A stretch of DNA of 44,551 nucleotides, taken from positions 1 through 44,551 of the forward strand of contig JASJYA010000003.1 in assembly GCA_030125685.1 (NCBI GenBank). Direction: 5' to 3'. The position numbers were made by a program, and so were the translations under genes. The stretch comes from Actinomycetota bacterium (GTDB taxonomy: Bacteria > Actinomycetota > Acidimicrobiia > Spongiisociales > UBA5794). Numbering within the stretch: position 1 is the stretch's first letter; every line of letters starts with the position of its first letter. Below are positions 10,455-25,055 of this stretch, piece by piece. Under the pieces are notes generated by a model that did no database searches, was not told where the DNA came from, and saw only the letters and a list, made by a program, of their open reading frames with translations.

Positions 10455-11692
10455 GACTCAAGAATCGCTCGCCGCACGAGATGCAGCGCGGCAGTTGCGG
10501 TGTGCGCCCGCACCTGCTCTCTGTCCCCCGGCATGTGGAGCGTCCTCACCGTGGCAACCGAAGGTGTGGCGACCGCAACGATCATCGTCCCAACTGGCTG
10601 TTCGAGTGGTTCGGGGCCTGCAGAACCCGTGACCGCGACGGCGACATCCACACCCAGGACCGAGCGCGCACCACGGGCCATTGCCTCGGCTGTCTCCTCT
10701 GAGACGACACCGTGACTTGCAATGGTCTCAGGCGGCACGCCGAGAATCCCGAGCTTGAGGTCGGAGGCATACGCCACGATCGAACCCCGGAATGTCGCGC
10801 TCGCTCCCGGCAGGCTGGTAAGCCTCCGACCGACGAGTCCGCCGGTCGCGGACTCCGCGGTTCCGATCATCCAGCCCCGCTTCTCCAGTTCGGTGCGGAT
10901 GACCCGTTCGATCGTGTCGTCATCGGCCCCGAAAATCACGTTTCCGATCCGGCTCCGTACCTCGCTCTCAACAGGTGCAATGAGCGCACGGGCCTCCTCC
11001 TGTGTGTCAGCGAGGGCGGTAAGGCGAATCTTGATCTCACCCGAAGACGCGAGAAACGCCACGGTCGGATTCTTCCCGACGTCAAAGAGATCCTGAAGCT
11101 CCTCCCCGACCTTCGCCTCGGACATTCCCCAACTCCGAAGCACCCGGCTCACCACCGCGCGGCCACCGCCGGCCTGCTCCCGCAAGAACGGAAGGACGAG
11201 CTCGTCAACCATCGCAAGCATCTCCCCAGGCACTCCGGGAAGGGAGAACACCCAACACCCTTCAATGAGGATTCGGAATCCGGGAGCTGAGCCTTTCGCG
11301 TTTACGACGACATGCGATTCTTCTGGCCGATACGCCTGCCGCAGATTCGATTCCGGGAACGGCTTATCAGGCCTCATCCAGTTCCACCGCTTCCTCAGCA
11401 CATGCTCATGTGTCTCGTCGTAGATAAGGGGGACGCCCGCGACGCCCGCGACGGCGCTCCGAGTGATGTCATCAGCCGTTGGGCCAATGCCACCGGTGAT
11501 GATGAGCGCATCGGCCCGGCTTACGGCGAGCCTGATCGCCGCACCCATGCGATCCGCATTGTCACCGACGACGGCCTGGTTGATGTGGGTGAATCCGCTC
11601 TCAGCCAACCGGATCGCGATGTCTTTCGCATTCGTGTTGGCGATCTGCCCCAGAAGCAGCTCCGTACCGACCGCGAGCGTCTCGACGATCAC
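10451..11692 (-). CDS. cinA: CinA (MocF domain + NMN deamidase PncC domain)
   Basis: VGTELLLG, TGGIGPTADDIT, GSAPG, LPGVP, AESATGG, HGVVS; GTG overlaps rimO stop. Confidence 0.93.
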   Translation of the reverse strand: MIVETLAVGTELLLGQIANTNAKDIAIRLAESGFTHINQAVVGDNADRMGAAIRLAVSRADALIITGGIGPTADDITRSAVAGVAGVPLIYDETHEHVLRKRWNWMRPDKPFPESNLRQAYRPEESHVVVNAKGSAPGFRILIEGCWVFSLPGVPGEMLAMVDELVLPFLREQAGGGRAVVSRVLRSWGMSEAKVGEELQDLFDVGKNPTVAFLASSGEIKIRLTALADTQEEARALIAPVESEVRSRIGNVIFGADDDTIERVIRTELEKRGWMIGTAESATGGLVGRRLTSLPGASATFRGSIVAYASDLKLGILGVPPETIASHGVVSEETAEAMARGARSVLGVDVAVAVTGSAGPEPLEQPVGTMIVAVATPSVATVRTLHMPGDREQVRAHTATAALHLVRRAILES

Positions 11693-13005
11693 GGCGCCAC
11701 CACCGTCGCTGCTAGGTCGATGCCGTACGCGCCGTCGATCGTCGCGGTAACCCACTCCCCCTCGGCGCCCGAGTCGAGAAGGATCACGCCGTCGATCTCC
11801 GGCGCCTCCCGGTAAGAACGCCCAACCGCTTGGCCGTCCTCGACCTGGTCGATAAGAATGTCGAGTGTGCGACCGACCGTCCGGGCGTTCGCGGCCGCCG
11901 ATATGTCATCCTGGAGTCCCTGCAGATGACGCATCCGCTCGGTGATCTCGTCGTGCGGAATCTGGTCCGGCATCGTTGCGGCGTCGGTTCCGTCTTCGGC
12001 CGAGTATGGGAAGAACCCTGCCCAATCGAGCCGCGCCTCCTCGAGAAACGCAGCAAGGCCTTCGACATCCTCATCTGTCTCCCCCGGATACCCGACAATG
12101 AAGCTCGACCGGGTCGCTGCCCCGGGAGCTGCGTCGCGGATGCGTTCGATGAGCGCGAGATGCTTCTCGCCACTCCCGGATCTCCGCATAGACCGAAGCA
12201 GAGACGGCGAAGAATGCTGGAGCGAGAGATCGAAGTATTCGGCGATCACCCGGTGACCCGCCATCACGTCGATCAGTCCCTGGCGGATCTCCCGCGGAAA
12301 GAGATAGTAGAGGCGGAGCCTTCCGAGGCCGCCGACAGACGCTGCCCGCTCGACCAGATCCTCGATCGACCCCGCGTCGTTGTCTCTGCCGTACGCGGCG
12401 AGATCCTGGGCAACGAGCACGATTTCCTGAATCCCGTCCGCGATGAGTCCTTCGATCTCGGCGATGACGCTATCGCCGGGGCGCGATCGCTGCCTGCCTC
12501 GGATGAGGGGTATTGCACAGAAGGCACACGTCTTGTTGCACCCCTCAGCGACCTTCACGTAGGCGAACGGCGTTGAAGGCGTCGGGCGTTTCACCACATC
12601 GAGGATGTCCATGCGCGAACGCCGAAATCCGGGGAACTCGATTGGGCGCCATCCGGTGAGGGCATCGAGCTCGTCGATGATATCGGGATAGCGATCGAGT
12701 CCGATGACGGCGTCAGCCTCAGGAAGCGCTTCGATGAGTTCCCGTTCGTACCGCTGCGCCATGCATCCGATCACCACGAGTTTGGCGTCTCGCCGTTTCG
12801 CCTCCGCGAGTTCGAGAATCGTGTCGATCGACTCTCGTCGGGCGTCCTCAATGAACGCGCACGTGTTCACCATCACGACATCCGCTGATTGTAGATCAAC
12901 AGCATCCCGATATCCCGAATCGCCGAGAATCGCGGTGATCTTGTCGGAATCAACCTGATTCTTCGAGCAGCCGAGCGTCGTGAGCCAAAGAGTGGGGGCA
13001 GACAT
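11689..13005 (-). CDS. rimO: Ribosomal protein S12 methylthiotransferase
   Basis: LGCSKNQVDS, NTCAFI, EGCNKTCAFCAIP, GYPGET, APEIDG. Confidence 0.95.
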   Translation of the reverse strand: MSAPTLWLTTLGCSKNQVDSDKITAILGDSGYRDAVDLQSADVVMVNTCAFIEDARRESIDTILELAEAKRRDAKLVVIGCMAQRYERELIEALPEADAVIGLDRYPDIIDELDALTGWRPIEFPGFRRSRMDILDVVKRPTPSTPFAYVKVAEGCNKTCAFCAIPLIRGRQRSRPGDSVIAEIEGLIADGIQEIVLVAQDLAAYGRDNDAGSIEDLVERAASVGGLGRLRLYYLFPREIRQGLIDVMAGHRVIAEYFDLSLQHSSPSLLRSMRRSGSGEKHLALIERIRDAAPGAATRSSFIVGYPGETDEDVEGLAAFLEEARLDWAGFFPYSAEDGTDAATMPDQIPHDEITERMRHLQGLQDDISAAANARTVGRTLDILIDQVEDGQAVGRSYREAPEIDGVILLDSGAEGEWVTATIDGAYGIDLAATVVAP

Positions 13006-14289: not shown

Positions 14290-14703
14290 TTACCTGGCTT
14301 CGGGTATCTCTATGCCGCGGTCGATAAGGTGGCCCTTGATCACGCCGATGCGCGCCCTGATCTTGGGCAGTCCCATTGCGTCCTCGATGCCCTTGTTGAT
14401 CTTCACACCACCGAGATTGCCCATCTCGCCCGTGGAAGCCCCGACGCTGCCTGCCTGCACGACGAGGTCGATTCGTTGGGCCTCGATCATCTTCGCCTGA
14501 CCTCGCAACGCCGCAAGCTCACGCAACAGATCCTCATCCGCACGACCCGAGTCCAGCTCGTCAGCGAACCCGGTGGCCTCTTCGCGCAGCCGGTCCCGCT
14601 CTTGGAGAAGCTCGTGCTTCTGGGTGAACGCATCGTCCGGGAGGTCAAGTATCCGTCTCTGAACGTCGGCGAGCCTCTTGGTGATATCGGTTGTATCTGG
14701 CAT
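14290..14703 (-). CDS. Hypothetical coiled-coil protein
   Basis: 137-aa ORF filling the gap; TAGAGT -10-like hexamer 6 nt before ATG. Confidence 0.7.
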   Translation of the reverse strand: MPDTTDITKRLADVQRRILDLPDDAFTQKHELLQERDRLREEATGFADELDSGRADEDLLRELAALRGQAKMIEAQRIDLVVQAGSVGASTGEMGNLGGVKINKGIEDAMGLPKIRARIGVIKGHLIDRGIEIPEAR

Positions 14704-14712
14704 GAACTCACT

Positions 14713-16050
14713 CTACAGCGACAGGGCCGGTCGCGCGAGCCTGTTGAAACCCTCCTCCATGGCAGCGACGAGTTGATCGATCTCTTCGTCTCCCATCACT
14801 GTGGAGACAGCCGCCGTACAGGTGTTGATCATCAGGAAGCCGGCGTCAAGAAGATGGTCGAGCAGCATCTTGAGGCGACGCGACTCCTCCGGTGTGGCGA
14901 AGGTTTCGCGGTAATTCCTCGGAGCGCTCTCCTTGAGGTGCACGCGGAACATCGATCCTCCCCCGGTGACACACGCTGCGACGCCCGTCTCCAAGATCGC
15001 ACCCTCGATGCCCTCCACAGCTCGTTTCGCGAGACGATTGACTCGCTCCACAGCCTCGCGGTCGTACATCTGCATCGTCACGAGACCCGCCGTCATCGTC
15101 ACCGGGTTGGCCGAGAACGTTCCTGAATGGGGGAACAGCACCTTGTCAGCGAGCGGATTCATCACGTCCATGACGTCTGTACGCCCTGCAATAGCGCCGA
15201 CAGGGAATCCGCCGCCGATGAGCTTCCCCATCGCGGTCAGATCAGGACGAGCGTCGTACCACTCCTGAGCGCCGCCGTATTCGGAGCGGAAAGTTATGAC
15301 CTCGTCGAATACGAGAAGTGAGCCGTCCGAATCAGTCCAGTCGCTCAACGCGGAGACGAACTCCTGGGACGCGGGCATCAGCCCAACTCGATGAGGCATC
15401 GGGTCGAGCAGAACACACGCAAGCTCTCCTCTGTGCTCATCAAGGATTGCGAGAGCAAGGCCGGGGTTGTTGAAAGGGATAACGACAACGTTATCGAGCA
15501 CGGAGGAAGGCGTGCCGAATGCGACCGGTACAGACACAGGGCGGTCCGCACTCCCCCAGTCAGTGGGCTTCGACATCTGGCTCACTTCGGCGTAGTCGTA
15601 CAGCCCGTGGTACGCCCCCTCCACCTTGGCGATTTTGGAGCGCCCGGTGAACGCCCTTGCCGCTTTTAGCATCCCCATGACGGCTTCGGTGCCCGAATTC
15701 ACGAACCGCAGTTTCTCGAAGCTATCGCTCCGCCCACAGAGGTGCTCGGCGTAGCGAACCTCGATCTCAGTCGCCATGGTGAAAGCGGTACCGCGGTTGA
15801 GCTGCTCAGTCACCGCCGCGACGACCTCCGGGTTGGCGTGTCCGTGAATCAGAGACGCCATGTTGTTCGCGAAGTCGATACGTTCCACACCCTCGATATC
15901 GGTGACCCGGCATCCAGAAGCCCGATCGGCGTACAAAGGATGAGGGTCTCGCAGCACGGTGTTGCGACTGACACCGCCGGGAAGAACCTTAAGGGCGCGC
16001 TCGTACAGTGACGCGCTCCGAGACGGCGGTCGTGGCGCGTCAGTGATCAC
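14713..16050 (-). CDS. Class III PLP aminotransferase, HemL-like fold, probable beta-amino acid transaminase
   Basis: NSGTEA, YHG, FDEVIT, PDLTAMGKLIGGGFPVGA, SGTFSANP; N-terminal PGGVSR rather than HemL PGGVNSPVR. Confidence 0.85.
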   Translation of the reverse strand: MITDAPRPPSRSASLYERALKVLPGGVSRNTVLRDPHPLYADRASGCRVTDIEGVERIDFANNMASLIHGHANPEVVAAVTEQLNRGTAFTMATEIEVRYAEHLCGRSDSFEKLRFVNSGTEAVMGMLKAARAFTGRSKIAKVEGAYHGLYDYAEVSQMSKPTDWGSADRPVSVPVAFGTPSSVLDNVVVIPFNNPGLALAILDEHRGELACVLLDPMPHRVGLMPASQEFVSALSDWTDSDGSLLVFDEVITFRSEYGGAQEWYDARPDLTAMGKLIGGGFPVGAIAGRTDVMDVMNPLADKVLFPHSGTFSANPVTMTAGLVTMQMYDREAVERVNRLAKRAVEGIEGAILETGVAACVTGGGSMFRVHLKESAPRNYRETFATPEESRRLKMLLDHLLDAGFLMINTCTAAVSTVMGDEEIDQLVAAMEEGFNRLARPALSL

Positions 16051-16745
16051 TCTTCGCCCCCCAGGGATTCTTGGCGGATCGGAATCAGCTCTGCGCCCGT
16101 TCGTTCTGCTACGTACGAGAATTCCACCCCCGGGGCAAGCTCCACGAGCTGGAATCCCTCCGGGATCACATCGATCACCGCAAGATCGGTGTAAATACGA
16201 TCCACCACCGCGGGACCCGTCAGCGGATAGGTGCAGGACTCGACGAGCTTCGGTTCCCCCGCCCTGGTGCAGTGCTGGGTGATGACATAGATCGTCCTGA
16301 CTCCCGCGACAAGATCCATCGCGCCGCCAACGGCGGGGATCGCGTCCGGCGCGCCCGTTGACCAGTTGGCAAGGTCGCCGTGTTTGGAGACCTGGAGGGC
16401 GCCAAGCACGCAGAGGTCGATGTGGCCCCCTCGGATCATGGCGAAGCTGTCGGCGTGGTGGAAGAACGACGCCCCGGCAAGCGCGGTGACCCGGCGCTTC
16501 CCAGCGTTGATCAACTCAGGCTCGCCCTCGCCGAGTCCTGGCGACGGCCCCATGCCGAGCAGCCCATTCTCCGTGTGATAGATCACCTCTCTGCCTTCGG
16601 GCACGTATCCGGCCACCTGCTCGGGAATACCTATGCCAAGGTTGACATAGGCGCCGTCGGGGATGTCGAGTGCGGCTCTGCGGGCCATCTCGTCTCGCGT
16701 CAATCCAATTCGATTCGCTCCGCTCGTTGTCGCTTTCTCTGTCAC
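16047..16745 (-). CDS. pcaJ: 3-oxoacid (3-oxoadipate-type) CoA-transferase subunit B
   Basis: YVNLGIGIP, catalytic TENG, DSFAMIRGGH, GDLANW, PAVGGAMDL, CTYPLTG. Confidence 0.85.
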   Translation of the reverse strand: MTEKATTSGANRIGLTRDEMARRAALDIPDGAYVNLGIGIPEQVAGYVPEGREVIYHTENGLLGMGPSPGLGEGEPELINAGKRRVTALAGASFFHHADSFAMIRGGHIDLCVLGALQVSKHGDLANWSTGAPDAIPAVGGAMDLVAGVRTIYVITQHCTRAGEPKLVESCTYPLTGPAVVDRIYTDLAVIDVIPEGFQLVELAPGVEFSYVAERTGAELIPIRQESLGGEE

Positions 16746-17452
16746 GGATAGGACACTCCTCGGGCAACGAGCTCGGATTCGTGGGCCGGCTCGTCAACTG
16801 CAACGACCAGGCTGACGAAGATCCCCGGCGTCACTACGCACTCAGGATCGATCTCCCCCGGTGCGACCACATCGGCAGCTTGGACGATCGTGGTTTTCGC
16901 CGCCATCGCCATGATCGGGCTGAAATTGCGTGCGGTCTTGTTGTACACCAGGTTGCCGTGATGGTCGGCGGCACGGCACTTGATGAGGGCGAAGTCCGCG
17001 GTGAGACCGTACTCGAGCACGTAGCTACGACCCTCGATCGTGCGCTGTTCCTTCCCGTCTGCGAGGGGCGTCCCGACAGACGTCGGCGTATAGAACGCGG
17101 GGATGCCCGCGCCGCCCGCCCTGATACGCTCCGCGAGGGTGCCCTGGGGCACAAGCTCGAGCGCCGTGCGCCCGCTCCGATACAACTCGGGGAAGACCGT
17201 GGAATTCGCCGTTCTCGGATACGAGCAGATCATCTTCGAGACTCTGCCTGCCTTGATCAACGCCGCCAAGCCCACCTCGCCGCTCCCCGTGTTGTTGTTG
17301 ACTACGGTGAGATCATTGGCTCCGTGGTCGATGAGAGCGTGGATCAGCTCAATAGGGCTCCCCGCCTCGCCAAAGCCGCCCACCATGACGATCGCCCCAT
17401 CAAAAATGTCCGCCACTGCTTCGCCGGTTGTCTCTATACGCTTGTTGATCAT
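16742..17452 (-). CDS. pcaI: 3-oxoacid (3-oxoadipate-type) CoA-transferase subunit A
   Basis: GGFGEAGSPIELIHAL, NNNTG, ICSYPR (PcaI-type), PQGTLAERIRAGGAGIPAFYT, ARNF. Confidence 0.85.
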   Translation of the reverse strand: MINKRIETTGEAVADIFDGAIVMVGGFGEAGSPIELIHALIDHGANDLTVVNNNTGSGEVGLAALIKAGRVSKMICSYPRTANSTVFPELYRSGRTALELVPQGTLAERIRAGGAGIPAFYTPTSVGTPLADGKEQRTIEGRSYVLEYGLTADFALIKCRAADHHGNLVYNKTARNFSPIMAMAAKTTIVQAADVVAPGEIDPECVVTPGIFVSLVVAVDEPAHESELVARGVSYP

Positions 17453-17518
17453 CGGGTGTGCTGCTCCTCCAAGACGTCCGACGCTACCAATCGTAGGCTG
17501 TTCACTCGGTCCACTCGC

Positions 17519-18985
17519 TCACGAGGCGCCTGCGACCGCGATCGTCACCGGAACCTCATCTCGAATGCCCTCCACCCGCTGGTAGTCGTACAACCCCGCC
17601 TCGTCATAGATGACTCGATCCGCGTAATCATCGAACCAAATCGCCTCCGGATTGCGGCCGACGATGCACACCTTGCCACGATCCGGTGCCTCCTCAGCAT
17701 TGCGCAAGATCTTGAAGATGAGCACCCCGTTCTCCGAGAGCGGCACCCCGGGGATCGGCTCGTTCGTGACCGCGACAACCTCTATTTTTCCCTTGTAGTG
17801 GGTGATTGAGAGACGAGCGTGCGTCTCGACGCCGGACAGCCCTTTCTGGGACTCGTTGAGGATGCTCCACGCAGTCTCGATCGGTACGTTGAAGGCCTTA
17901 TACGCGACAATGTCCCTGCCACAGAAGAAGTAGTGGTTTCCGACTCCGATCCAGTTGAGGGCGCGCTGCATGACCCGTATCGCGTCCGGGTCGTCGTTGA
18001 CGCCCTTGATGATGGGCGCCTGGTTCTCGACGTTGATCCAGCCACGGGAGACCACAGCGTCCATTGCGCGCTTCGTGCTCTCGTGCCACATCAGTGCGCC
18101 GTTCGGGTACTCCAGGTACGCACCATCAGGACCCTTGCGGAGGAATTCGTCCGGATGGTTGAAGTGCACCATGAGACGAAAGCCGACATCGGGGTAGGTT
18201 GTATGGAAAGTGTCGAGCATCGACAGGAACGCATCATCGAAACGGCGCGGATAGAACGCAAGCTCCTTGGTTCCCAGGCGAATCGACTCGATGCCTGCCT
18301 CCGCAAGAGCGCTGAGCCAGGCCGCTATCTTGCTGTTGGGTAGCACCATCGGGTCTCCCCCGGATAGCAGAATCTCGCGGAGCTTCTCGCGACCGGTCTC
18401 TGGATGGCGCCCACCATTACGTTCCACGGCGTCGTTATGAATCCGTACATAGTCCGTGATCTCGCGAATCTGCGCCAGTCCTTTCTTGGAGACGGTGCCG
18501 TCCTGGCGTTCGATGTCCTTCCGGCCGATCAGTTCCTCGCGGTAGCAGAAGCGGCAATGCGCCGAGCAGGTAGAGATCACGTAGAGAAGGCCCATCTCGT
18601 ACTTGTGGAGGAGACCCTCGACGGGGCTGTAGTCCATCTGGAACCCGGGATCCTCGGAACCTGCAAGATTGAGTGTTTCATCGGGGCTCGCCTTAACGAG
18701 CCGTTGGAGCGATGCACTATCTCTCGCCAACTCGAAGTAGTGGCGGGTGATTTTGACCGGCATCCGATCTTCGACGTCGCGGTCCGTACCGCGAAGGCTC
18801 AACAGCTCCGATATCTCATCACTCGAGTAGAAGCCCTTCATGTCTGCGGGCGCCCTGTTCTCGAAGAATGGATCGAGTCCGTTGATGATCTGTCGGTCGT
18901 ACTTCGGGTTCTCGACCGTGTCGAGGAAGGCCCGTTCCCTGGTAGTCGGTACGTACTTCTCTGATCTACCCATCGTCATCCTCAT
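17519..18985 (-). CDS. KamA-family radical-SAM/PLP aminomutase (divergent lysine 2,3-aminomutase-like)
   Basis: SPVEGLLHKY, CSAHCRFCYR (CxxxCxxC plus Arg), LLSGGDPM, HFNHP, NQAPIIKGVND, LSG...GKI (candidate PLP lysine). Confidence 0.87.
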   Translation of the reverse strand: MRMTMGRSEKYVPTTRERAFLDTVENPKYDRQIINGLDPFFENRAPADMKGFYSSDEISELLSLRGTDRDVEDRMPVKITRHYFELARDSASLQRLVKASPDETLNLAGSEDPGFQMDYSPVEGLLHKYEMGLLYVISTCSAHCRFCYREELIGRKDIERQDGTVSKKGLAQIREITDYVRIHNDAVERNGGRHPETGREKLREILLSGGDPMVLPNSKIAAWLSALAEAGIESIRLGTKELAFYPRRFDDAFLSMLDTFHTTYPDVGFRLMVHFNHPDEFLRKGPDGAYLEYPNGALMWHESTKRAMDAVVSRGWINVENQAPIIKGVNDDPDAIRVMQRALNWIGVGNHYFFCGRDIVAYKAFNVPIETAWSILNESQKGLSGVETHARLSITHYKGKIEVVAVTNEPIPGVPLSENGVLIFKILRNAEEAPDRGKVCIVGRNPEAIWFDDYADRVIYDEAGLYDYQRVEGIRDEVPVTIAVAGAS

Positions 18986-19002
18986 TCCCTTGCAGCAAGC
19001 AC

Positions 19003-19050
19003 TTACGCACTACTGTAACGCAATGCATATCCGCTAAATGCTATTGTAAC
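19003..19050. promoter_or_regulatory. Candidate RpiR operator/divergent promoter
   Basis: CTACTGTAAC (19010-19019) and CTATTGTAAC (19041-19050) direct repeats 31 bp apart; TTAC-N8-GTAA at 19003-19018. Confidence 0.45.
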
Positions 19051-19053
19051 AAC

Positions 19054-19908
19054 ATGCTCAGAGATGATCCACAGGTTTCGATCTCCGCGCTCGTCGCTGC
19101 GGCGGGTGATCGCCTCACCCCGACCGAGCGCAGAATCGCCGAGGCTGTCCTCCAAGATCCGGCTCTCCTGGCTTTCGGAACCGTCTCGACTCTGGCGGAC
19201 CATGTGGGCACCAGTCGCCCCTCAATCGTACGGTTCGCCCACAAGCTGGGATTCAGCGGCTACACACAGCTCCGGGAGAGCCTGCGCAGCGGCCTCTCGC
19301 AGCAGCTTTTCAGGCCGAGCGACCGCATCAGGCAGGATGACACAACAGGAAGCCCTGCTCGATCCGCGCTCACGGAAGCGCTCTCTGGTGTGTTCGACGC
19401 GATCGACGGTGATCAGTTGTCCAAGCTTGCGGCGCCCATCATCCGAGCCGACACCGTATGGATCATCTCGGGTGAGACGTCCCGAGCAGGCGCCCACGCC
19501 CTGCTCAGTGGACTCTCGATCGTCCGACCGTCCGTGCGCCTCGTTGAGGAACACTCCACCGGCGTAGACCTGGCAGGCGCAGGGCGCCGAGACGCTGCCG
19601 TCGTCATCGACTTCTTCCGGTACAGGCGCCACGCGATCCGGTCGGCTCGCATGCTCGCTGAGCTCGGAGTCGAGATTGTTACGATCACTGACAGCCCTCT
19701 CTCTCCTCTCGCTGCCCTGACCGACACCTGGTGTGAACTCAGGATTCCGGCGGTGGGGCCGCTCGACAGCTCTCTCCCTGCGGTTGCGATGGCGGAACTC
19801 CTTGTAGCACAAGTCGCTCACGAACTCCACGACGAGGCGACGGACCGCATTGACCGCATCGAAGAGTTGTGGGAGCGGACCGAGACATTCCTCCCACAGG
19901 ATCGCTAA
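19054..19908 (+). CDS. RpiR/MurR-family transcriptional regulator
   Basis: LTPTERRIA, TSRPSIVRFAHKLGFSGY HTH; SIS domain ITDSPLSPLA. Confidence 0.93.
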   Translation: MLRDDPQVSISALVAAAGDRLTPTERRIAEAVLQDPALLAFGTVSTLADHVGTSRPSIVRFAHKLGFSGYTQLRESLRSGLSQQLFRPSDRIRQDDTTGSPARSALTEALSGVFDAIDGDQLSKLAAPIIRADTVWIISGETSRAGAHALLSGLSIVRPSVRLVEEHSTGVDLAGAGRRDAAVVIDFFRYRRHAIRSARMLAELGVEIVTITDSPLSPLAALTDTWCELRIPAVGPLDSSLPAVAMAELLVAQVAHELHDEATDRIDRIEELWERTETFLPQDR

Positions 19909-19917
19909 CGACGGCGA

Positions 19918-20988
19918 CTAAAGAATCACGGCCGGGCGCCAGCCACGTACCGAGTTGATGAGAGCAACAGCATCCGCCGCCCGCGCCTCGGCGATGGTCA
20001 CATGCCGTTCCATGATCGTGTGGGACTTGAGCAGCTCACCGCGCAGGATCCCGGGGAGGAGCCCATCCGACACGGGAGGCGTTACCCACTCCCCGTCGAT
20101 GAGAAATACGACGTTGGCAATCGTTGATTCAGTTACACGGCCGCGCTCGTTGACACAGAGCACGTCGTCGGCATCGGGTCTAAGGGTTGCGGAGATCTCC
20201 GAAACCATCTGCCACACCGTTCGGTACTGCTCGACGGTGAACAGCTCATCAACTGTGACCGTTCCGAACTCGGCGATTCGACCCAGGTCGTTGCGGATGA
20301 GATCGACGATCATCAGGTTCTCTGCACGGTTCTTCTCTGATGATCTCAGCTTCTGTCGCTCTGCTTCGTCCTCGCTCGGCGATCTCCCTCTTGGCGCCGT
20401 GCCCTTCATCGGTCTGGTCGCTATTCGCCCTCCCTTGACCGAGAAGAACCGCTCCGGTGAGGCAGACACGATGTGGGTGTCGTCATGCCAGAGGTGCGCC
20501 GCGTACCTACCTTGCTGCGCCGAAATGAGGTCGGCGTACATCGATTCGGCCTGGCCGGAGAACGCTGCGCGAAAGGGGAACGTCAGGTTGACCTGGTAGC
20601 TGTCACCGAGCTCGATGTGCCGAAACACGGCTGTGAAGGCTGACCCGTATTGTGTTCGGTCGTAGGCCGGCACCCATCTCGACACGGAGTAACCCTCGGC
20701 CGTCGTGGGGGTTACGCACGGTGGATCTACGTCGACCGAATCGCCGAACACGCCAAACCAGAAGAGCGGGCCGTTGTACCCGTCCTGGACAACGAGAGCA
20801 TCATCGAACCCGGGAGCGGCGTCAAAGGTCACATATCCCGCTACCCAATTACCGACGGCAGCTTCCTTGGCCGCCGAGCGAATCGCACCGACGACTTCCG
20901 AAGCCTCAGAGGCGACGATCTCGCGGAGGTTGTTCTTCAACATGAACGAGCGCCCGGACCCTGCATCATCGAATCGAGCGCCAAACAT
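19918..20988 (-). pseudogene. pabB: Aminodeoxychorismate synthase I/lyase (PabB-PabC) fusion with large in-frame internal deletion
   Basis: GDSYQVNLT, SASPERF, PMKGT, EKNRAENLMIVDLIRNDLGR run directly into lyase C-terminal motifs (NERGRVTESTIAN, GLLPGILR, NSVRG); GSxTGAPK, AIRT, GGGI and the lyase PLP-Lys region are absent. Confidence 0.75.
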
Positions 20989-21007
20989 CGGAGGAGGATA
21001 CGAGCAT

Positions 21008-21028
21008 GCCAGACGCCAGATGCCAGAT
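21008..21028. repeat. Three GCCAGAY heptamers
   Basis: GCCAGAC GCCAGAT GCCAGAT in the divergent intergenic gap. Confidence 0.5.
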
Positions 21029-21086
21029 TCCGGGCATCCGGCTCTGACTTCTCCTAGTGTGTGAATCACCCAACAGAGGAACACCC

Positions 21087-22709
21087 GTGCATATGCAGGA
21101 CGACTTCCCGCTGCTCATGAGCACCCTGTACGACAACGCCGTCTGGCAGTACCCCCAGCAAGAGATCGTATCGGTTGAAGCTGACCGATCCATTCACCGA
21201 ACGACGTACGCAGACACCGATGTGCGTATACGCAAGCTCGCAACTGCGTTCTCGCAGAAGCTCGGAACCACCCAGGGCGACGCAATCGGGACGTTCGCGT
21301 GGAACAACCACCGTCACCACGAGCTCTACTGGGCGACGGCAAACACAGGCCGCATCTGCCACACGATCAATATCCGGCTCTTCGCAGACCAGATTGAGTA
21401 CATAGTCAACCACGCTGGGGACAAGGTCATGTTCATCGATCCCGACCTTGCGCACCTCATTGCACCGCTGATCCCCAAGTTCGCGACAGTCGAGCACGTC
21501 ATCATCATGGGACCCACCGCCGAAGGTTCGGGCATCGAAGGCGCCATCGCCTATGAGGATTTGATCGCCGACGTTGCACCTCTCGCTGAATGGCCGCGCC
21601 TAGACGAGAGAAGCCCGATGATGTACTGCTACACCTCTGGTACGACGGGGAACCCGAGAGGTGTCGCCTATACCCAGCGTTCGACGTATCTCCACACAAT
21701 CTCAAACCTGGCAGCCAACCCGATCGGCGCGGAGGACAATGTGCTCCCCGTTGTCCCGATGTTCCACGCTGCTGCGTGGGGGTATCCCTTTCAGGCAGTC
21801 ACCGTCGGGGCAAAGCTGACGTATCCCGGGCCTGACCTGTCGGGGGCGGCAGTCGTGAAGTTGTTCGTCGACGAACACGTGACGTTCTCAGCCGGGGTTC
21901 CGACAGTCTGGCTCGGAATCCAGCAGCACCTCGAAGCGAACCCCGATGTCAGCATTGCGCACATGCGGGCACTCTTCTGTGGCGGTTCGGCTGTCCCGAG
22001 AGCGATGATCGACTGGTTCGAGAGGAACGCCGATGTTCGGGTCATCCAGGGATGGGGCATGACAGAGACGAATCCGATCGCGTCGGCCGCGACTCTCAAA
22101 CCGTGGATGGAGGGGTGGCCGTGGGAGGAGCAGCTCGATGTACTCGAGACCGCCGGTCGTCCTATTCCAGGGCTTCAGGTGAAGATCGTCGATGAGAACT
22201 TCAAGACACTGCCGAACGACGGGGAAGCTTTCGGTGAGCTTCTGATCCGAGGCCCGTGGATCGCTGCCGAGTATTACAACGACCCGCGGTCAGACGAATC
22301 CTTCGTCGATGGCTGGTTGCGAACGGGAGACGTCTGCAAGATTACCCCTGACGGCTACATCAAGATCACAGACAGGGCGAAGGACGTCATTAAATCCGGG
22401 GGTGAATGGATCTCTTCCCTTGACGTCGAGAACGAGATCATGGCCCATCCCGACGTGAGGGAAGCCACAGTAGTCGGGCTCAAGCACCCCAAGTGGCAGG
22501 AACGGCCTGTAGCGTTCGTCGTCCCTCGCGAAGGCTTAGCCGTGACTCCTGACGACATCCGGGAGTTCCTCGCCCCACGGATCGCCAAGTGGTGGATACC
22601 GGACGAGTTCATCTTCATCGACGAAATACCAAAGACCGGCACCGGCAAGTTCGACAAGAAAGTTGTACGGGCGGAGTATGAGGATCTTCTGCTGGAGGCT
22701 GAAACCTGA
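21087..22709 (+). CDS. Fatty acid-CoA ligase (AlkK/DmdB-like AMP-binding enzyme)
   Basis: YTSGTTGNPRG, PMFHAAAWG, GWGMTET, GWLRTGD, DRAKDVIKSGGEWISS, PKTGTGKFDK. Confidence 0.93.
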   Translation: MHMQDDFPLLMSTLYDNAVWQYPQQEIVSVEADRSIHRTTYADTDVRIRKLATAFSQKLGTTQGDAIGTFAWNNHRHHELYWATANTGRICHTINIRLFADQIEYIVNHAGDKVMFIDPDLAHLIAPLIPKFATVEHVIIMGPTAEGSGIEGAIAYEDLIADVAPLAEWPRLDERSPMMYCYTSGTTGNPRGVAYTQRSTYLHTISNLAANPIGAEDNVLPVVPMFHAAAWGYPFQAVTVGAKLTYPGPDLSGAAVVKLFVDEHVTFSAGVPTVWLGIQQHLEANPDVSIAHMRALFCGGSAVPRAMIDWFERNADVRVIQGWGMTETNPIASAATLKPWMEGWPWEEQLDVLETAGRPIPGLQVKIVDENFKTLPNDGEAFGELLIRGPWIAAEYYNDPRSDESFVDGWLRTGDVCKITPDGYIKITDRAKDVIKSGGEWISSLDVENEIMAHPDVREATVVGLKHPKWQERPVAFVVPREGLAVTPDDIREFLAPRIAKWWIPDEFIFIDEIPKTGTGKFDKKVVRAEYEDLLLEAET

Positions 22710-22723
22710 GACCTGCCGGTGGC

Positions 22724-24964
22724 CTACCGTAGGACGCTCTCCAGTTCATCCTCGGTGATCAACACGCTGCGGGCCTTGGAGCCCTCAGAGGGGCCGACGA
22801 TGCCTTTGCCTTCAAGGATGTCCATGACTCGGCCCGCCCGTGCGAATCCAATGCGTAGTTTGCGCTGGAGCATCGACGTCGAACCGAGCTGAGATCGCAC
22901 GATGATGTCGATGGCTTGGCGCATGATCTCTGGATCCTCGCCGTCGAAAGCGTCGTCATCGGAAGCCGTCTGCTGCGCCTGTTCGAAGACCTCTGCATCT
23001 CGGTATTGGGCGTCACGCTGTGCCCGCACCCATTCGACGACTGCTTGGATCTCAGGCTCGGACACGAACGACCCTTGGATGCGCTCAGGCTTAGGGTCAC
23101 GCGCGGTGACAACGAGCATGTCCCCCAAGCCGACAAGCTTGTCTGCGCCTCCCTGGTCGATGATGACTCTGCTGTCGGTCTGGGAGGCGACGGAGAATGC
23201 GAGACGCGACGGAATGTTTGCCTTGATGACACCCGTGATGACGTTCACCGAAGGACGCTGTGTCGCGAGGACAAGGTGGATGCCCACGGCGCGAGCCATC
23301 TGGGCGATGCGAACGATCGAGTCCTCCACAATGCGCCCGGAAACCATCATGAGATCGTTCAGCTCGTCGACGACGATCACAATGTGGGGGAAGCGGTCGA
23401 ACATCTCCTCATCGAGGGCGCCTGCATCGTACGCCTCACGGTACGAGTCGATGTCCCGCACACCGGCGTCCGCAAGCAGGTCGTACCTTCGGTCCATCTC
23501 GGCCACGGCCCACTGCAACGCATCGGCTGCTTTCTTCGGACTGGTGATCACTCTCGTGAGCAGATGTGGCACATCGTTGTACTGACCGAGCTCGACTCTC
23601 TTGGGGTCAACCAGGATGAGCCTTACCTCGTCCGGGGTTGCTCGCATGAGGATCGAGGTGAGCAGGGAATTGATGCATGAAGACTTCCCCGCTCCGGTAG
23701 CGCCTGCAATCAGCAGGTGAGGCAGTTCGGTGAGGCGGAGCATGCGGGGGGCGCCAGAGACGTCCATGCCGAGACTCACGAGCATCGGATCGTGGTCTGA
23801 GCTTGCAACGTCGGACGTGAGCACGTCACCGATCGTGACAAGGTATCGCCTGCGGTTCGGAACCTCAACCCCGATGGCGGACTTCCCTGGTATCGGCGCG
23901 AGGATGCGAACATCGGCCGCGGCAAGGGAGTACGCAATGTCGTGGGTGAGACTCGTGACCTTGTTCACCTTCACGCCCGGCGCTAGCTCGATCTCATACC
24001 TTGTCACGGTAGGGCCCGGAACGATGCGCACGAGCTGCGCGTCGACGCCGTGCTGGCGGAGCGTCTCCTCGAGCGTTTCACCCGTCTCTGTGAGTCCCTG
24101 CCCGTCGTGGCCCTCGTGGTTCGATAGCTTGAGGATTTCAAGCGGCGGGAGCTCGTACCCCTCGGTTCTTACAGGCTCGGGCACCTTCGGCTTCATCGGC
24201 GCCGGCGCCACCGATTGGGGATCGGCAGCCTTCTTCGCCTTCTGCTTCTGTGGTGAAGACTTGACGCTCGCAGGCACGCTCGGCTGGGACACGGGTGCCA
24301 CCGCGACGGCCTCTGCCCGCTGCGCGCGCGCGATGCCGACCCAGTTCCAAAAGCGCGAGAAATATGCGCCGATTGACCGGAGAACGTCTCCAAGTGACGC
24401 ACGAGTAATCAACAGCGCACCGACACCGACGAGAGCGACGAGCACGACGAACGTCCCCCAGTAGCCAACCACTCGCTCAAGCGGGTACGCGATGAGGGAT
24501 CCGACGACACCGCCTGCATTCTCGACCGAGTGCTCCGTGCCGGCGATCGGGAGGTTCCCCGTCAGCAGGTGAAACAGCGACAACGATCCAACGAACAGAA
24601 CAGAGACGCCCACGATGGCCTTGGGGTGATCATCTCGCGCCACGACGCCGATGAGGGAGAGCCCGGCAATCATCAGAGCCAGCGGGACCACGAACGCCCA
24701 GACCCCGAACAACAAGCGGGTTACGGTGGACGCGGTCGTCCCGAAGGGCCCTGCGAGTTCGAAAAATGAGAGAAGCACGAGAACGCCGACGGCGATGAGA
24801 GTGATGCCCCACACGTCTGCTTTGTGGTCACCGAGCTGGTCGCCGATCTTTCGCGGGATCGCCCCCAGCGCGGAGGCTCCCCTCGAAACGAACGACTGCT
24901 TCTTCTGTTTTCTTCTGGCGGTGCTCCGCCCCGTGGCCCGACCCGTCGTAGTGCGTGTCGCCAT
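22724..24964 (-). CDS. ftsK: DNA translocase FtsK
   Basis: N-terminal TM segments, GPTVTRYE, PHLLIAGATGAGKS, DPKRVEL, ATQRPS, gamma domain STSMLQRKLRIGFARAGR. Confidence 0.97.
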   Translation of the reverse strand: MATRTTTGRATGRSTARRKQKKQSFVSRGASALGAIPRKIGDQLGDHKADVWGITLIAVGVLVLLSFFELAGPFGTTASTVTRLLFGVWAFVVPLALMIAGLSLIGVVARDDHPKAIVGVSVLFVGSLSLFHLLTGNLPIAGTEHSVENAGGVVGSLIAYPLERVVGYWGTFVVLVALVGVGALLITRASLGDVLRSIGAYFSRFWNWVGIARAQRAEAVAVAPVSQPSVPASVKSSPQKQKAKKAADPQSVAPAPMKPKVPEPVRTEGYELPPLEILKLSNHEGHDGQGLTETGETLEETLRQHGVDAQLVRIVPGPTVTRYEIELAPGVKVNKVTSLTHDIAYSLAAADVRILAPIPGKSAIGVEVPNRRRYLVTIGDVLTSDVASSDHDPMLVSLGMDVSGAPRMLRLTELPHLLIAGATGAGKSSCINSLLTSILMRATPDEVRLILVDPKRVELGQYNDVPHLLTRVITSPKKAADALQWAVAEMDRRYDLLADAGVRDIDSYREAYDAGALDEEMFDRFPHIVIVVDELNDLMMVSGRIVEDSIVRIAQMARAVGIHLVLATQRPSVNVITGVIKANIPSRLAFSVASQTDSRVIIDQGGADKLVGLGDMLVVTARDPKPERIQGSFVSEPEIQAVVEWVRAQRDAQYRDAEVFEQAQQTASDDDAFDGEDPEIMRQAIDIIVRSQLGSTSMLQRKLRIGFARAGRVMDILEGKGIVGPSEGSKARSVLITEDELESVLR

Positions 24965-25055
24965 GGGAGACGAACTGTACCCCAGGTTTCGCTCAGAACA
25001 AACCACCATCCGCGCGATTTCTCGCGCGGAGAGTTACAACCGTGTAATTCCCAAC

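Follow-up and report, generated by a model that had tools for sequence, protein, structure and literature searches.

The window analyzed here is a 44,551-nucleotide stretch of DNA from an Actinomycetota bacterium (assembly GCA_030125685.1, contig JASJYA010000003.1), in which five genes between positions 14713 and 19908 form a cluster that is predicted to degrade an acidic α-amino acid. Four of them lie on the reverse strand and encode, in the direction of reading, a 488-residue KamA-like radical S-adenosylmethionine (SAM)/pyridoxal phosphate (PLP) enzyme (17519–18985), predicted to be a 2,3-aminomutase for an acidic α-amino acid, at best guess 2-aminoadipate; the PcaI-type subunit A (16742–17452, 236 residues) and the PcaJ-type subunit B (16047–16745, 232 residues) of a coenzyme A (CoA)-transferase; and a 445-residue class-III, HemL-like aminotransferase (14713–16050), predicted to be a β-amino-acid transaminase. 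The fifth gene, on the forward strand (19054–19908), encodes a 284-residue RpiR-family regulator with HTH_6 and SIS domains. The PcaI/PcaJ and PcaJ/aminotransferase junctions overlap by 4 nt, the KamA-like and PcaI genes are separated by 66 nt, and the start codons of the divergent KamA-like and RpiR genes are 68 bp apart, with a probable operator of two direct GTTACAnTA boxes (19011–19050, reverse strand) in the spacer. This layout had been described in an earlier note made from the sequence alone, and every detail of it that was checked is correct. Since a contig from a different study covers positions 15660–19946 in one piece, with 13 differences, the arrangement is not an assembly chimera.

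Conservation and distribution of the cluster

In a scan of one genome per species (185,579 genomes), at least 385 stretches were found to encode a relative of the KamA-like protein, and gene neighborhoods were counted in the best 80 of these, all from genomes of other species, with 73–87% identity in the KamA-like protein. By tblastn, PcaI was detected in 73/80 loci, PcaJ in 72/80, the aminotransferase in 69/80, RpiR in 67/80, and all four partners in 56/80; several of the misses are contig ends, and in two genomes the partners missing from the KamA-like locus (PcaI, PcaJ, and aminotransferase) lie on a different contig. When all open reading frames (ORFs) in the 80 loci were clustered de novo, the same core emerged, with no other gene present in more than 23 loci. 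The carriers belong to at least eight phyla (Actinomycetota, Pseudomonadota, Acidobacteriota, Planctomycetota, Chloroflexota, Gemmatimonadota, Myxococcota, and others), and the labels of metagenome-assembled genomes (MAGs) among them include Acidimicrobiia and Gammaproteobacteria (Woeseiaceae and Lysobacterales). The linkage with pcaIJ, the aminotransferase, and RpiR, on whose conservation the earlier note had staked its proposal, is thus clearly conserved across phyla. Among 34 further loci of the same main clade from metagenomes, many of them on short contigs, PcaI was found in 29, PcaJ in 23, the aminotransferase in 19, and RpiR in 22, whereas none of these partners occurs in any of 46 loci from outgroup KamA clades; the adjacency of PcaI to the KamA-like gene (29/34 versus 0/46) exceeds chance.

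Two architectures were recognized. In architecture A, that of the window, RpiR is divergent from KamA, PcaI, PcaJ, and the aminotransferase; most of its carriers are Actinomycetota, among which Chloroflexota, Planctomycetota, Gemmatimonadota, Acidobacteriota, and Alphaproteobacteria are nested. In architecture B, found in Gammaproteobacteria and some Acidobacteriota, KamA is divergent from RpiR, PcaI, PcaJ, an optional thiolase, and the aminotransferase.

Within the bacterium's own family (81 sampled genomes), the KamA-like gene and PcaI occur together in 21 genomes, PcaI alone in one, the KamA-like gene alone in none, and neither in 59, a PcaI homologue being defined by E ≤ 1e-40 (22 genomes, of which the 21 KamA-like carriers are a subset); as these kin are not independent, no test statistic is given. 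The KamA-positive genomes are spread over 9 of the 30 genera, and in a sample of the class the gene was present in 8/301 genomes. The best 120 database relatives of the KamA-like protein are 77–100% identical to it, and 247 of the 488 alignment columns are at least 95% conserved in 81 family sequences; the nearest other full-length representatives are only 41–49% identical, and the family sits on a long branch. In a tree of all 80 loci, the window, and three outgroups (built by a quick method without bootstraps), phyla are intermixed within one shallow clade; this and the patchy occurrence point to a constrained cassette that has spread horizontally. Marine-sediment and marine metagenomes are the sources of carriers and of sequencing runs with cluster DNA, and the cassette is also found in many marine and sediment metagenome contigs; a protein atlas returned only clusters named 'hypothetical protein' or 'lysine 2,3-aminomutase'.

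Enzymes, regulator, and genomic setting

A profile of 46 homologues of the KamA-like protein aligns to lysine 2,3-aminomutase (LAM; PDB ID, 2a5h) over positions 8–356 with an E-value of 3.4e-84, although only residues 107–291 of the KamA-like protein align to LAM in a single-sequence phmmer search. The AlphaFold2 model (pLDDT, 90.6; pTM, 0.89) has 2a5h as the best and sole strong fold match (Foldseek E, 1.6e-17; TM-scores, 0.57/0.68; next match, E 2.6e-4), with 19% identity over the structural alignment, and shows insertions and a different C-terminal part relative to LAM. The CxxxCxxC motif is present as C140/C144/C147, aligned with LAM C125/C129/C132. Other correspondences in the profile alignment are LAM R134, which we take to be the arginine binding the α-carboxylate, with R149; LAM K337, presumably the PLP-binding lysine, with K400; and LAM D172, R198, E236, and Q258 with D211, R236, E280, and Q322, respectively. 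All of these residues are invariant in the 81 sequences, K400 also across the 46 diverse homologues, and thus, as judged from the alignments, the cofactor-binding and α-amino-acid-binding apparatus of an aminomutase is present. LAM D293 and D330, the aspartates assumed to bind the ε-ammonium group of lysine, are replaced by R357 and S393, both likewise invariant in the 81 sequences, as is R391. Glutamate 2,3-aminomutase has Lys/Asn replacements. Since 2-aminoadipate is a lysine isostere that has a carboxylate in place of the ammonium group, an acidic side chain would be the best fit to the change from Asp293 to Arg357, and the protein is predicted to be a 2,3-aminomutase for an acidic α-amino acid. 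None of ten distant homologues scanned as candidates for a true glutamate 2,3-aminomutase comparator reached any equivalog cut-off.

The aminotransferase of the window belongs to Aminotran_3, and its best NCBIfam matches are HemL-like and all below cut-off (328.4 bits against a cut-off of 527.3 for the HemL equivalog TIGR00713). Its closest solved relative (386 bits) is StoTA (PDB ID, 6k8h), an ω-transaminase from Sphaerobacter thermophilus that is described as accepting aromatic, branched, and aliphatic β-amino acids and a γ-amino acid (PMC10589169). Among the 69 loci with an aminotransferase, 43 have this type (type A), and 26 have another (type B) that is about 30% identical to it and closest to MesAT (PDB IDs, 6iz9 and 2yku; 458 bits), followed by 4ao9 (414 bits). 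Because two different β-transaminase lineages fill the same slot, the intermediate is predicted to be a β-amino acid, and this is the strongest single argument for it that the sequences provide. The equivalent of the carboxylate-binding Arg54 of MesAT is kept in 44/44 type-A and 25/26 type-B enzymes. The hydrophobic side-chain pocket of MesAT includes Met256 and Met414 (PMC6698932). In the type-B enzymes, which keep Arg54, Ala225, Ala312, and Arg412 of MesAT, the Met256 position is Lys in 26/26 and the Met414 position is Asp in 25/26. Such a charged pocket would suit a side chain with a carboxylate and speaks against substrates resembling leucine or phenylalanine. In type A, Arg221 was considered as a cluster-specific basic pocket residue and dropped, as the same Arg is found in ForI, and an Arg one residue before it in StoTA. 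A third class-III aminotransferase of about 500 residues, with weak ArgD/ornithine-aminotransferase-like matches and no PDB relative at E ≤ 1e-30, lies directly downstream of the KamA-like gene in three loci (L035, L055, and L065; e.g., L055:11460–12971).

Both CoA-transferase subunits pass their family models, PcaI with 343.6 bits for TIGR02429 (pcaI_scoA; cut-off, 128.5) and PcaJ with 291.4 bits for TIGR02428 (pcaJ_scoB; cut-off, 243.55). Three plasmid-borne PcaI homologues whose contexts were inspected (62–66% identity; tblastn, 291–297 bits) are all encoded in IclR-pcaI-pcaJ-pcaF operons, which adjoin pcaD, pcaC, pcaH, and pcaG in Sinorhizobium meliloti pRM41A, a catechol-type dioxygenase gene and benE in a Roseivivax plasmid, and quinate/shikimate-type genes in a Loktanella plasmid; Bacillus subtilis ScoA (PDB ID, 3cdk) scored 221 bits with a different program (phmmer), so that it can be compared with the pca-operon scores only roughly. 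The earlier note had remarked that no thiolase lies in the window. The thiolase is indeed unlinked in this genome, yet 23/80 related loci encode a thiolase of about 400 residues no further than 8 kb from the KamA-like gene; about 20 of these loci have architecture B, with the thiolase placed between PcaJ and the aminotransferase. The 21 complete linked thiolases (two truncated ones, L027 and L064, being excluded from the scan) and the own-genome copy, 22 in all, match TIGR02430 (pcaF) at E ≤ 1e-180; the linked enzyme of L032 (677 bits) and the unlinked one of the window's genome (625.5 bits), whose neighbors are unrelated to aromatic catabolism, exceed the cut-off of 597. Among the 34 main-clade metagenome loci, nine have a thiolase gene, best matching pcaF, that lies convergently downstream of the aminotransferase. 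From these PcaIJ and PcaF affinities, a C6 dicarboxylate would be the best fit for the carbon skeleton.

The best plasmid-borne PcaIJ homologue (69% identity) was found on Tistrella mobilis plasmid pTM2 (L179, 599–8391), next to a DUF1338/HglS gene, an aldehyde dehydrogenase, a PLP aminotransferase, and a GcvA regulator, with no KamA-like gene annotated. HglS, after which Pfam names the family (HGLS), is the 2-oxoadipate-converting enzyme of lysine catabolism. This neighborhood looks like one for lysine/2-oxoadipate catabolism, and is taken as a lead only.

The regulator has an N-terminal HTH_6 domain (PF01418; 56.5 bits) and a C-terminal SIS domain (PF01380; 33.1 bits), both above cut-off, and reached no named NCBIfam equivalog. 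The two GTTACAnTA boxes (19042–19050 and 19011–19019) are direct repeats 31 bp apart; both fall in the 68-bp spacer, and the window contains no further match to GTTACANTA (mean in shuffled sequences, 0.13). The paired motif occurs upstream of the KamA-like gene in 45/79 loci, in Actinomycetota and Gammaproteobacteria alike, and nowhere else in the 1.22 Mb of those loci; one locus (L022) with less than 150 nt of upstream sequence is left out of the motif counts. At least two GTTACA boxes were found in 51/67 loci with an adjacent RpiR gene versus 0/12 without one. The boxes are probably the RpiR operator, to which the regulator would bind.

The genome to which the window belongs (1.88 Mb) is 96% complete, and genes missed in it are reported as not found. 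No intradiol dioxygenase, PaaB, or PcaD above cut-off was found in it, and PaaA only as a 33-residue match at a contig end; thus, no aromatic route feeding PcaIJ was found. Likewise, HglS (PF07063) and β-keto acid cleavage enzyme (BKACE)/Kce proteins were not found in this genome. An ATP-binding cassette (ABC) transporter of the polar-amino-acid type adjoins the cluster in 10 loci, with a GlnQ-like ATPase and a fused binding protein/permease best matching the Glu/Asp permease GltK, both below cut-off, and major facilitator superfamily (MFS) transporters, with weak best matches to organic-anion carriers, are found next to the cluster in four loci of one lineage and three of another, separate one. 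The genome has lysA, for the last enzyme of the diaminopimelate route to lysine, and therefore needs no 2-aminoadipate for lysine. Altogether, the transporters, lysA, the dedicated regulator, and the island-like distribution favor the catabolic direction.

In outgroup KamA-like clades (35–46% identity), a BKACE gene (PF05853) stands beside the aminomutase gene in 7/46 loci, two of which (L133 and L139) have KamA, a class-III aminotransferase, and BKACE in this order on one strand, and a class I/II aminotransferase gene lies immediately upstream of the KamA-like gene in 6/46. The sequence of amino shift, β-transamination, and β-keto acid cleavage thus seems, from gene content, to recur with a different last step. 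A further variant is encoded on plasmid MesoLj113b2 of Mesorhizobium sp. 113-3-3 (L185, 8989–13840), consisting of a KamA-like protein (68% identity, annotated as hypothetical), a ferredoxin FdxA, a type-A aminotransferase (61%), a CoA-transferase without a tblastn match to PcaIJ, and a GlxA-type regulator; the ferredoxin possibly supplies electrons to the radical-SAM cluster. This strain is a cultured carrier and a possible experimental host. Other genes near outgroup KamA-like genes (loci among L099–L140, L147, L149, L154, and L160) include a divergent Amidohydro_2 gene in four loci and, in 11, a FliI-like ATPase with chemotaxis genes that is probably mere synteny.

Proposed pathway and alternatives

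Based on these assignments, the KamA-like enzyme would shift the amino group from C2 to C3, converting 2-aminoadipate to 3-aminoadipate, from which the class-III β-transaminase would produce 3-oxoadipate. PcaIJ would then form 3-oxoadipyl-CoA with succinyl-CoA as the CoA donor, and a PcaF-type thiolase (unlinked here, linked in many relatives) would cleave it into succinyl-CoA and acetyl-CoA, so that the net reaction would need no O2, redox step, decarboxylation, or ATP. The divergent RpiR protein probably controls the operon through the two boxes in the spacer. Every catalytic activity, the substrate, the flux direction, and the regulator site are predictions from sequence. We hold the general mechanism of amino shift, transamination, CoA transfer, and thiolysis to be highly probable. 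The chain from α-amino acid via β-amino acid, 3-oxoacid, and 3-oxoacyl-CoA to thiolysis, as put forward in the earlier note, gains support from the two β-transaminase lineages, the linked PcaF-type thiolases, and the sister clades with BKACE. We lean, by a small degree, toward the cluster being a catabolic route that leads an acidic α-amino acid, most likely L-2-aminoadipate, into the lower β-ketoadipate pathway; this substrate, guessed at in the same note and still a presumption, best fits the PcaIJ/PcaF identities, the Asp-to-Arg change, and the charged pocket of the type-B transaminases. The chances seem evenly balanced for the most far-reaching form of the proposal, namely a 'β-aminoadipate shunt' with the first radical-SAM 2-aminoadipate 2,3-aminomutase, which would link the final part of lysine degradation with the lower β-ketoadipate pathway without O2, redox cofactors, ATP, or carbon loss, as a highly conserved cassette spread among marine-sediment bacteria of many phyla and as one of a broader, undescribed group of modules in which a KamA-type aminomutase and a β-transaminase are followed by either CoA-transferase plus thiolase or BKACE.

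Several observations weigh against this reading. The KamA-like protein fails all curated NCBIfam cut-offs of the KamA family (73–84 bits versus 199–650), including those of the family model TIGR00238 (84.3 versus 199.2), the lysine 2,3-aminomutase model TIGR03820 (78.1 versus 525.4), and the glutamate 2,3-aminomutase equivalog TIGR04368 (80.3 versus 650). Arginine at the D293 position is common among many uncharacterized KamA homologues, and therefore argues against lysine without singling out 2-aminoadipate. Arg221 of the type-A transaminase says nothing on the side chain, and type A offers no signal comparable to that of type B. No gene forming 2-aminoadipate is present in the conserved neighborhood of the cluster (80 loci); saccharopine dehydrogenase, lysine 6-aminotransferase (LAT), and semialdehyde dehydrogenase are absent among the scanned representatives of neighbor clusters, and in the own genome just one unnamed Sacchrp_dh-like protein and no LAT above cut-off were found. 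The one convergent metagenome thiolase that was scanned (L153) scored 560.5 bits, below the cut-off of 597. A PcaF-type thiolase exceeds the cut-off in 50/81 family genomes and, as read from the tables, is present in 17/21 KamA-positive and 39/60 KamA-negative ones, roughly as often without the cluster as with it; it is not specific to the cluster. The idea that the own-genome enzyme is dedicated to the pathway was consequently rejected, given how common it is in family genomes without the cluster: a PcaF-type thiolase is available, not dedicated. Three Chloroflexota MAGs (L060, L063, and L069) have RpiR, the KamA-like gene, and the aminotransferase with no PcaI genome-wide at E ≤ 1e-30. Finally, sugar phosphates are the usual effectors of RpiR/SIS regulators, and a member of this family is unexpected in an amino-acid operon.

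Among other substrates, glutamate or β-glutamate might be converted via 3-oxoglutarate and its CoA ester to malonyl-CoA and acetyl-CoA, with the KamA-like protein acting as a glutamate 2,3-aminomutase that links the α and β pools. The invariant Arg in place of LAM D293 would fit any distal carboxylate, the ABC permease beside some clusters has GltK as its best match, albeit below cut-off, and the carriers and runs come from marine sediment and marine metagenomes; β-glutamate has been reported to be abundant as a free amino acid in marine-sediment pore waters. We regard this as unlikely, however, in view of the score on the glutamate 2,3-aminomutase equivalog (80.3 bits against 650) and the apparent grouping of the CoA-transferase and thiolases with 3-oxoadipate enzymes; moreover, an aminomutase alone would suffice to salvage β-glutamate, making the linkage to transaminase, CoA-transferase, and thiolase redundant, and no report of 3-oxoglutaryl-CoA thiolysis was found in the open-access literature. 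Quite unlikely, too, is a neutral or hydrophobic substrate such as leucine, which would proceed via β-leucine and β-ketoisocaproate to isobutyryl-CoA and acetyl-CoA. A 'β-keto pathway' of leucine was once proposed, and to our knowledge its aminomutase gene was never identified; succinyl-CoA:3-ketoacid CoA-transferases are able to accept several aliphatic 3-oxoacids. StoTA and MesAT are also described as accepting β-leucine and related aliphatic β-amino acids (PMC10589169, PMC6698932). Such a substrate would nevertheless be at odds with the Lys (26/26) and Asp (25/26) that take the place of two hydrophobic pocket residues in the type-B transaminases, with the invariant R357 and R391 of the aminomutase, with the PcaF type of the thiolases and the pcaIJF operons around the nearest annotated PcaI homologues of inspected context, and with the adjacent transporters, which are of the polar-amino-acid ABC or MFS kind, none of those scanned being of the branched-chain type.

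It is also conceivable that the KamA-like protein is not a 2,3-aminomutase and catalyzes other radical chemistry on a metabolite then passed to the transaminase and CoA-transferase, for example as a lyase or epimerase, or as an aminomutase whose substrate is bound to CoA or a carrier. Its scores far below all curated KamA cut-offs (84.3 versus 199.2 for TIGR00238), the 19% identity to LAM, the insertions and different C-terminal part, and the phmmer alignment restricted to residues 107–291 would be accounted for in this way. The conservation of the PLP lysine, the α-carboxylate arginine, the three cysteines, and the columns of LAM D172, R198, E236, and Q258, together with LAM as the only strong fold match and β-transaminases recruited twice beside the KamA-like gene, makes such chemistry very unlikely. 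Least probable of all is the biosynthetic direction, in which succinyl-CoA and acetyl-CoA would yield 3-oxoadipate, 3-aminoadipate, and then 2-aminoadipate as a building block, osmolyte, or lysine precursor. The four steps are reversible in principle, and thiolase-driven synthesis of 3-oxoadipyl-CoA has been used in engineered adipate pathways; on the other side stand lysA in the own genome (LysW/LysX-type genes were not searched for), uptake transporters beside the cluster in several lineages, the patchy, horizontal-looking distribution (8/301 genomes of the class; mixed phyla in a tight clade), and a dedicated, repressor-like regulator, all features typical of catabolic islands.

The preferred reading, catabolism of 2-aminoadipate via 3-oxoadipate, has partial parallels in known systems. 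Lysine 2,3-aminomutase (KamA of Clostridium subterminale), glutamate and arginine 2,3-aminomutases, and EpmB share with the KamA-like protein the CxxxCxxC motif, PLP lysine, α-carboxylate Arg, fold, and predicted 1,2-amino shift, but differ from this 488-residue protein, which scores only 73–84 bits against their cut-offs of 199–650 and has Arg/Ser for Asp293/Asp330 of LAM. Its context of PcaIJ, β-transaminase, and RpiR is not that of kamDE/kdd/kce, ablB, or efp/epmA; the cluster matches none of the KamA contexts known to us, as the earlier note had also held, and none found in the open-access literature explains it. Clostridial lysine fermentation (KamA, KamDE, Kdd, and Kce) likewise starts with a KamA-type aminomutase and ends with cleavage of a β-keto acid to CoA esters, and sister clades of the KamA-like protein are linked to Kce-family (BKACE) genes as in that pathway. 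Here, in contrast, no B12-dependent 5,6-aminomutase or Kdd is present in the conserved neighborhood, no Kce was found there or in the own genome, the amino group would be removed by transamination, and cleavage would be achieved by CoA-transferase and thiolase. With the lower branch of the β-ketoadipate pathway, the cluster shares a CoA-transferase 62–66% identical to the subunits of IclR-pcaIJF operons, and linked thiolases matching the pcaF model, whereas no ring-cleavage or lactone genes were found in the cluster or genome, RpiR takes the place of IclR/PcaR, and 3-oxoadipate is predicted to arise from an amino acid. MesAT (2YKU), VpAT (4AO9), and StoTA (6K8H), the nearest solved relatives of both cluster aminotransferases (458 and 386 bits for types B and A), keep the Arg54 equivalent in common with them; they were found by screening, with no natural pathway assigned in the consulted portions of the sources, whereas the cluster enzymes sit in a conserved operon. 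Known catabolism of 2-aminoadipate, proceeding via 2-oxoadipate to glutaryl-CoA or, by HglS/DUF1338, to 2-hydroxyglutarate, takes up the substrate presumed here, likewise at the last stage of lysine breakdown. Both of these routes start with α-transamination, followed by oxidative or O2-dependent decarboxylation, whereas the proposed route would be redox-neutral and keep all six carbons, and HglS was not found in the own genome.

A survey of the main texts of open-access papers and bioRxiv preprints yielded no description of the cluster or of a natural 3-aminoadipate route; the enzyme families are known, and the predicted specificity and pathway would be new. The characterized radical-SAM 2,3-aminomutases known to us act on lysine, on glutamate, on arginine, and in β-lysylation of elongation factor P. 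If the prediction is true, this small set would gain a new substrate class, and lysine/2-aminoadipate catabolism a new, oxygen-free end-route conserving six carbons. The cluster would also place β-transaminases, mainly known as screened biocatalysts, in a natural pathway, as part of a modular scheme of aminomutase, β-transaminase, and β-keto acid cleavage that recurs in sister clusters. The wide occurrence of the cassette and the 73–87% identity of its KamA-like protein between phyla make a role in the amino-acid turnover of sediments probable, and both 3-aminoadipate and 3-oxoadipate are of interest for engineered adipate routes.

Neighboring genes and minor features

The earlier note had placed the cluster between rimO (11689–13005) and the gene for FtsK (22724–25009). 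Both do flank it, but neither abuts it, since a PHP phosphatase-like gene, an ORF of 137 residues, a PabB/PabC-like ORF, and an acyl-CoA ligase gene intervene. The 137-residue ORF (14290–14703, reverse strand) lies 9 nt downstream of the aminotransferase gene on the same strand, has no Pfam or NCBIfam match, and is kept at this position only in close relatives (L001, L003, L006, L007, and L023); it is possibly an extra operon member. A scan for promoters and terminators gave nothing useful, and RNA evidence was uninformative on expression: no RNA dataset is listed as containing the stretch, a genuine RNA run yielded no more than five short and diverged fragments, and a run labeled metatranscriptomic is probably DNA.

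Two observations on relatives stand apart from the above. In L063, one of the three Chloroflexota MAGs without PcaI, panB, coaBC, and coaX are neighbors on the other strand. Most of the 50 family genomes with a pcaF-type thiolase are without PcaIJ.

The acyl-CoA ligase gene (21057–22709, forward strand) best matches a 3-(methylthio)propionyl-CoA ligase model, with 595 bits against a cut-off of 822, and passes a generic fatty-acid-CoA ligase subfamily model. This DmdB-like protein was considered as a pointer to methionine and dropped, being syntenic with the cluster in the closest relatives only. The start of its gene overlaps that of the divergent PabB/PabC-like ORF (19918–21084, reverse strand; 388 residues), which combines a partial Chorismate_bind domain (profile positions 2–169 of 257) with a partial Aminotran_4 domain (134–220 of 223). 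This ORF resembles a PabB/PabC fusion without parts of both domains, and could be either a shortened fusion or a decayed gene; relatives with 42–65% identity are encoded in L001, L002, L007, and L023.

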